Shown piece after piece: positions 60,523-60,595 of a stretch of 64,000 bases of DNA (positions within the stretch are counted from its first letter, which is position 1; each line of letters opens with the position of its first letter). The notes below the pieces were generated by a model that was not told the DNA's origin, made no database searches, and saw nothing but the letters and a program-made list of their open reading frames with translations. Location: NCBI RefSeq assembly GCF_054482525.1, contig NZ_CM137006.1; one strand, written 5' to 3'. The translations under genes were made by a program, and so were the position numbers.

Positions 60523-60564
60523 GGCATCCTCCGGTTAAGTTTTTTCTCATTAACCGAAGGATAC

Positions 60565-60586
60565 ACTCTGGAGTCGACTCCAGAGT
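60565..60586 (-). promoter_or_regulatory. ZntR (MerR-family) operator within the zntA promoter
   Basis: Perfect dyad ACTCTGGAGTCGACTCCAGAGT between a TTGACT -35 (minus strand, 60584-60589) and a TATCCT -10 with the 20 bp spacer typical of MerR-type promoters. Confidence 0.8.
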
Positions 60587-60595
60587 CAAGTTTTA

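Follow-up and report, generated by a model that had tools for sequence, protein, structure and literature searches.

The 73 bp that separate yhhN from zntA in this E. coli chromosome contain a -35 and a -10 hexamer set unusually far apart, together with a long perfect palindrome. Such a layout raises the question of whether we are looking at PzntA, the zinc-responsive promoter controlled by the MerR-family regulator ZntR, and, if so, whether its regulatory region is intact and which of its features are conserved. Here we address these questions by comparing the region with the K-12 promoter, with other E. coli genomes, and with its counterparts in other species. By the window we mean the whole stretch of DNA that was analysed, which is 64,000 nucleotides long, and all positions are counted from its first letter. 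We conclude with near certainty that the element is a ZntR-dependent, MerR-type sigma-70 promoter of zntA that works by the mechanism already known.

Anatomy of PzntA and its identity to the K-12 promoter

The features of the promoter and its two flanking genes are as follows, listed in the direction of transcription.

60596-61222, minus strand (same direction as zntA): yhhN coding sequence, 208 aa (Pfam PF07947 YhhN, 160.6 bits)
60584-60589, minus strand: -35 hexamer TTGACT, located by script, matching the consensus TTGACA at 5/6 positions
60565-60586: perfect 22-bp palindrome ACTCTGGAGTCGACTCCAGAGT, the ZntR operator, with its centre between 60575 and 60576
60564-60583, minus strand: spacer between the hexamers, 20 bp by coordinate count, 3 bp above the 17-bp optimum
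60558-60563, minus strand: -10 hexamer TATCCT, located by script
60550-60551, minus strand: predicted transcription start (A), 7-8 nt past the -10, the usual sigma-70 distance
60528-60532, minus strand: Shine-Dalgarno sequence GGAGG of zntA, 5 nt ahead of the ATG
58324-60522, minus strand: zntA coding sequence, full length, 732 aa, a Zn(II)/Cd(II)/Pb(II) P-type ATPase (NCBIfam NF033775)

Read 5' to 3' on the minus strand, the region is CTGTATCTCTGATAAAAC-TTGACT-CTGGAGTCGACTCCAGAGTG-TATCCT-TCGGTTAATGAGAAAAAACTTAACCGGAGGATGCC-ATG. yhhN ends with a TGA (60596-60598) 6 nt ahead of the -35 hexamer; on the other side, zntA begins 36 nt past the -10 and has the same orientation as the promoter. The identity of the downstream gene is clear: its product scores 1444 bits against the NF033775 ZntA model (cut-off 1240), and the match spans residues 1-732 of the 732-position model. 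The RefSeq annotation of matching E. coli loci agrees with this.

A first-pass annotation, made from the sequence alone, had proposed a MerR-type promoter at this locus. The script confirms the positions of TTGACT and TATCCT and the 20 bp that the annotation placed between them, and it agrees with a repeat finder on the perfect 22-bp dyad upstream of zntA, whose arms of 11+11 nt are 100% complementary and gapless. The annotation had also described the dyad as contained in the spacer. The dyad does lie between the hexamers, but it is not contained in the spacer, because 22 bp cannot fit into 20 bp: it begins within the -35 hexamer, whose final 3 nt (ACT) it shares, and a single G (60564) separates it from the -10. 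Similarly, the annotated interval, 60556-60590, encloses the 32-bp core promoter with margins of 1-2 nt, but it was given without its strand, which is minus.

This arrangement is what distinguishes MerR-family promoters: the spacing lies within their range of 19-20 bp (here 20), and the dyad overlaps, or lies between, the hexamers. A conventional promoter scan, which allows spacings of 16-18 bp, returned no promoter in 60300-60900, which is to be expected of a long-spacer promoter. The start of zntA transcription near 60551 is a prediction from position. The available text of the Cappable-seq and SMRT-Cappable-seq supplements makes no mention of a measured zntA start site or of read-through from yhhN into zntA.

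The palindrome is also exceptional within the window. The 22-mer ACTCTGGAGTCGACTCCAGAGT occurs once in the 64 kb, even when 3 mismatches are tolerated (0/100 shuffles), and no other perfect palindrome in the window is as long. In simulations, 6/200 sequences of 64 kb contained a perfect palindrome of 22 bp or more, with no requirement imposed on its position. The second-longest perfect palindrome in the window, ACGCCCGCATATGCGGGCGT, measures 20 bp and lies at 16289-16308. An Rfam scan found no family match near the zntA promoter. The only Rfam matches in the window are two full-length AgrB elements (RF02891) on the minus strand, at 8500-8583 and 8734-8817, which score 106 and 98 bits.

We then ask how this region compares with its characterised counterpart. 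A 161-nt alignment with K-12 MG1655 shows a single difference, in codon 13 of zntA; the stretch from the 3' end of yhhN through promoter, operator and leader to the start codon is identical. Thus the comparison with the K-12 zntA promoter that the annotation had called for gives 100% identity across promoter and leader. The dyad equals the published ZntR consensus at 22/22 positions, so that the mismatch with characterised ZntR sites named in advance as counting against the claim does not occur, and the zntA regulatory region is intact. Permina et al. give that consensus as a '22 bp palindrome', ACTCTGGAGTCGACTCCAGAGT, 'within a 20 bp promoter spacer' (PMC1526738).

Published accounts differ on the length of the spacer. 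Hobman et al. describe K-12 PzntA with a -35 of TTGACT and a spacing of 20 bp, as against 19 bp for MerR, CueR and PbrR (PMC3431237), and 20 bp is also the figure for PzntA in PMC7911910. The dissenting value is 19 bp, in PMC9189660. The coordinate count given above, together with the comparative register described below, supports 20 bp and not 19 bp. The element is therefore PzntA in its canonical E. coli form, and as such it is already known; no feature of the sequence speaks against this reading.

Conservation of the promoter and of its 20-bp register

Within E. coli, the promoter is nearly invariant. The 73-bp yhhN-zntA intergenic region has at least 99% identity in 5369/5425 E. coli genomes, and the 32-bp core promoter has an exact match (100% identity) in 5413/5426 complete E. 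coli genomes. A longer query of 361 nt, which comprises the promoter and flanking coding DNA, is present in 5425/5426 complete E. coli genomes, and yet it reaches at least 99% identity in only 175. One genome in which this query is 100% identical is that of strain ST2747, which shares with the window and with K-12 the gene order yhhM / yhhN / zntA / tusA / yhhQ.

Rare variants of the regulatory region were inspected in two strains. E. coli 14EC017 carries a -10 of TATCTT in place of TATCCT, and E. coli N96 has a 1-nt deletion in the A-run of the leader; the dyad is untouched in both.

In order to follow the promoter beyond E. coli, we scanned a genome collection with the core of the dyad, TCTGGAGTNNACTCCAGA, and obtained at least 120 loci. 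It is important to note that the 16 positions of the dyad core are conserved by construction in this sample, since they are the search pattern itself; the TTGAC part was left free. Among the 120 matches listed, at least 78 loci from other species precede a ZntA homologue by less than 400 bp, in the right orientation. The genera with such ZntA-linked sites include Citrobacter, Enterobacter, Kluyvera, Salmonella, Cedecea, Pantoea, Erwinia and Providencia.

The sites so collected retain the hexamers and the distance between them. Among the matches listed, TTGACT is found in 78/78 ZntA-linked sites, and a sequence of the form TAnnnT stands at exactly 20 bp in 76/78, the remaining two having CATACT at that place. 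This comparison thus shows a conserved 20-bp register, among listed ZntA-linked sites whose -10 interior, central dinucleotide of the dyad and flanks all vary. For example, the -10 of the 78 listed sites is TATCCT in 25 cases, TATGCT in 15, TAGGAT in 8 and TAGCAT in 7, with other forms in the rest. Their central dinucleotide is CG in 46; the other 32 have TG, CC, TC, CA, TA, GG, GC or CT.

Since the central CG is not conserved, what is conserved of the operator is a pair of 10-bp arms with two free bases between them, and conservation extends a further 3 bp upstream, through the -35. On this sample of sites, perfect symmetry through the centre is a trait of Escherichia and its close relatives, and not a requirement. 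The Shine-Dalgarno sequence of zntA is kept as GGAG(G/A) among the other leaders listed.

Matches were also found at a much greater distance. At no fewer than 8 non-enteric loci (Acidobacteria, Bryobacterales and others), the same promoter and operator lie directly upstream of merR-family genes, with the architecture TTGACT, then an CTCTGGAGTnnACTCCAGA dyad, then TAnnnT at 20 bp. Downstream of these merR-family genes comes a small ORF, in one case with a weak, sub-threshold match to thioredoxin/DUF2703. The arrangement suggests that autoregulated systems resembling ZntR or CadR, and using the same half-site, may exist far outside the Enterobacterales.

The ZntR switch and other readings of the palindrome

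The mechanism that we propose is the one established for this family of promoters. A dimer of ZntR, encoded elsewhere on the chromosome, would bind the 22-bp palindrome, which takes up the interval between the hexamers. With hexamers 20 bp apart instead of 17, the two elements would be too distant and out of rotational phase, and RNA polymerase would use the promoter poorly; apo-ZntR on the operator would repress it slightly further. Upon binding Zn(II), or else Cd(II) or Pb(II), ZntR would underwind and kink the centre of the operator. This distortion would bring the -35 and the -10 back into register, so that sigma-70 RNA polymerase could use both hexamers, and transcription would begin about 7 nt downstream of TATCCT, near 60551. 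The ZntA thus made would pump out the excess metal.

Several reports on the K-12 promoter bear on these steps. PzntA is described as having very low constitutive activity without ZntR, repression of up to about 2-fold at low zinc, and activation of about 10-fold at high zinc (PMC9189660). Protection of K-12 PzntA from DNase I by ZntR is cited in PMC3431237, and MerR-type activation is described as a distortion of the spacer that realigns the hexamers (PMC9189660, PMC7911910). Direct observation in the present analysis covers the anatomy of the promoter, the match with K-12, the near-absence of variation in E. coli and the conserved 20-bp spacing across Enterobacterales; ZntR binding, weak repression and zinc activation at this locus are expected from what has been published on K-12, whose sequence is the same.

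The structural side of this mechanism calls for a separate comment. A search of the PDB returned no ZntR-DNA complex, and its ZntR entries (1Q08, 1Q09, 1Q0A) hold a fragment, residues 43-141, that is without the DNA-binding domain. We therefore infer how the 20-bp spacer would be realigned by analogy with the structures of CueR, BmrR and CadR, which are the nearest relatives with DNA-bound or RNA-polymerase-containing structures in the PDB.

The regulator itself is not encoded in the 64-kb window. This is expected, because zntR lies about 167 kb from zntA in K-12. The gene is present in 5425/5426 complete E. coli genomes, and, given the species, this genome very likely carries it as well.

A first rival reading takes the palindrome to be mainly an RNA hairpin, with its place between the hexamers incidental. 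It would then end transcription as an intrinsic terminator, either of yhhN transcripts (minus strand) or of antisense RNA (plus strand). In favour of this, folding predictions for both strands give the palindrome a 9-bp RNA stem with an energy of about -14 to -17 kcal/mol; a simple scan makes a plus-strand terminator-like call at the palindrome, which is then followed by CAAGTTTTAT; and yhhN ends just before the -35, with no other terminator ahead of zntA. On the yhhN strand, however, the bases after the hairpin, GUAUCCUUCGG, do not form a U-tract, and no minus-strand terminator emerged from the scan. That is, the combination of a GC-rich hairpin and a U-tract by which an intrinsic terminator is recognised is absent from the strand of yhhN and zntA, and we rejected this candidate. 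The plus strand is here antisense to zntA, no gene ends at the palindrome, and the A-run upstream of the -35, which is the T-run of the plus strand, is inconsistently placed in other species. Moreover, a terminator would need neither TTGACT nor TAnnnT at 20 bp, and these are essentially invariant. The free bases of the loop, and half-sites that are identical in sequence rather than merely complementary, fit recognition by a protein. We consider termination as the main role of the palindrome very unlikely.

Even if the palindrome is a protein-binding site, it might be the operator of a different MerR-family regulator, such as CueR, SoxR or some paralogue yet to be described, in place of ZntR. 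To weigh this idea, we compare PzntA with the best-known systems of the family.

The closest likeness is to the K-12 PzntA/ZntR operator itself (Brocklehurst et al. 1999; Outten et al. 1999, as cited in PMC3431237 and PMC9909328). The -35, spacer, dyad, -10, leader and start codon are identical base for base, with the same neighbours, and one substitution, in codon 13 of zntA, lies outside a regulatory region that shows no difference.

PmerT, controlled by MerR (Tn501, Tn21), resembles PzntA in its -35 of TTGACT, in the dyad in its spacer, and in a regulator that is first a repressor and then an activator by distortion. It differs in its 19-bp spacer and in its interrupted dyad (7-4-7) with another half-site. 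In addition, merR is adjacent to and divergent from its target, unlike the distant zntR of K-12.

PcopA of E. coli, controlled by CueR, is likewise a long-spacer promoter of the MerR type that serves a P-type metal-efflux ATPase. CueR supplies the mechanistic model, through crystals of CueR with DNA (4WLS, 4WLW) and structures of CueR with RNA polymerase (6LDI, 7C17, 6XH7, 6XH8). But PcopA has a 19-bp spacer and the operator ACCTTCCC-N5-TGGAAGGT, and CueR responds to +1 ions (Cu, Ag, Au).

Finally, CadR/PcadA and PbrR/PpbrA (Pseudomonas, Cupriavidus) share with ZntR the response to divalent metals, and the -35 of PpbrA is also TTGACT; CadR is the closest relative of ZntR with DNA-bound structures (6JGV, 6JGX and others). 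These systems differ from PzntA in having mostly 19-bp spacers, imperfect dyads, and a regulator gene that is usually adjacent to the target.

The layout of a long spacer with a dyad in it is thus common to all MerR-family promoters, and the near-identical operators ahead of merR-family genes in Acidobacteria and Bryobacterales show that the half-site is not exclusive to the enterobacterial ZntR. Nevertheless, the sequence is that of a K-12 promoter with reported ZntR dependence, the CueR signal differs from it in both half-sites and spacing, and the site is consistently tied to zntA homologues across the species listed. Control by another regulator of the family is, in our estimation, extremely improbable.

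The last reading, a functionless palindrome that fell by chance beside chance hexamers, has a negligible probability: perfect palindromes of this length do occur in about 3% of simulated 64-kb sequences, but this element is unique in the window at 3 mismatches, shows almost no variation over more than 5400 genomes in which the coding DNA beside it does vary, and keeps its position, spacing and hexamers across many genera. We therefore return to the ZntR-dependent promoter, and to the transcripts that may cross it.

Probable read-through from yhhN and a second inverted repeat

A scan of the minus strand found no terminator-like site in the interval between yhhN and zntA. Since yhhN has no terminator ahead of zntA, yhhN transcripts probably continue into zntA. 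In a microarray study of Yersinia pestis, 'yhhN-zntA' was handled as one unit and assigned to an iron/Fur-like cluster (PMC2231364). A possible Fur box in the conserved leader sequence TAATGAGAAAATTATCATTA was tried here and rejected: by eye, only 11/19 positions match the consensus GATAATGATAATCATTATC.

The region between the operator and the zntA start codon contains a further symmetric element.

60524-60564, minus strand: second inverted repeat, in which GTATCCTTCGGTTAA (60564-60550) is complementary to TTAACCGGAGGATGC (60538-60524)

Its 5' arm comprises the -10, the discriminator and the first transcribed bases; its 3' arm comprises the Shine-Dalgarno sequence of zntA and its flanks. Because the ZntR-dependent start lies inside the 5' arm, the full stem can form only in an RNA that begins upstream of that start. 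We therefore wish to consider a possible 'fold-back' arrangement, in which read-through RNA from yhhN would mask the Shine-Dalgarno sequence of zntA and the ZntR-dependent transcript would stay open.

For E. coli, a strong effect is predicted. In the computed fold of an RNA with its 5' end in yhhN, a 15-bp stem hides the whole Shine-Dalgarno sequence, whose predicted probability of being unpaired is 0.00 in this read-through RNA and 0.29 in the RNA from +1. When the upstream sequence is shuffled, this probability becomes 0.11 +/- 0.10, and 3/200 shuffles are as low as the natural sequence. Among 45 Enterobacteriaceae leaders, 85% of the cells of a stem drawn by hand are paired, versus 30-56% when the partners are slid, and five pairs of the stem have changes on both sides. 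In Pantoea and Erwinia, this position is occupied by GC-rich hairpins unrelated to the stem.

The comparative evidence is mixed. RNAalifold found no consensus structure for the leaders. In a first comparison, the read-through RNA hid the Shine-Dalgarno sequence more than the +1 RNA did in 68/71 species, but a control with dinucleotide-shuffled upstream sequence removed most of this effect: over 64 species, the gain in masking of the Shine-Dalgarno sequence by natural rather than shuffled upstream sequence is only marginal (0.17 vs 0.20, p = 0.046). A search of the literature on structure in the zntA leader found nothing relevant. Taken as a model built on predicted folds, the fold-back arrangement seems to us unlikely. 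If it were true, synthesis of ZntA would be strictly ZntR-dependent and insulated from upstream transcription, as in the 'fold-back inhibition' of IS10, and the zntA control region would have a second, undescribed layer.

Three further observations concern the same leader. The first codons of zntA, ATGTCGACTCCTGA (MSTPD; 60509-60522, minus strand), match the operator's right half, GTCGACTCCAGA, at all positions but one, and the exact form, ATGTCGACTCCAGA, stands at the coding start in 14/72 of the leaders listed. In the predicted fold of the +1 transcript, the CUCC of these codons pairs with the GGAG of the Shine-Dalgarno sequence. Lastly, there is an ATG at 60548-60550 (minus strand), at the predicted positions +2 to +4, which opens a 13-codon frame that overlaps the zntA start out of frame; the sequence AATGAGAAAA is conserved in most of the Enterobacteriaceae leaders listed. 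This ATG may mean nothing, or it may begin a leaderless mini-ORF.

In summary, a MerR-type promoter was recognisable here from the raw sequence alone, and nothing new follows from it for the biology of ZntR. What the checks add is comparative support for the 20-bp register against the published '19 bp', the finding that the central CG of the operator is unconserved, and the observation that the PDB, as searched, holds no ZntR-DNA structure. The locus thereby serves as an internal control: the window is a piece of an ordinary E. coli chromosome, and its zinc-efflux switch is wild-type and intact.
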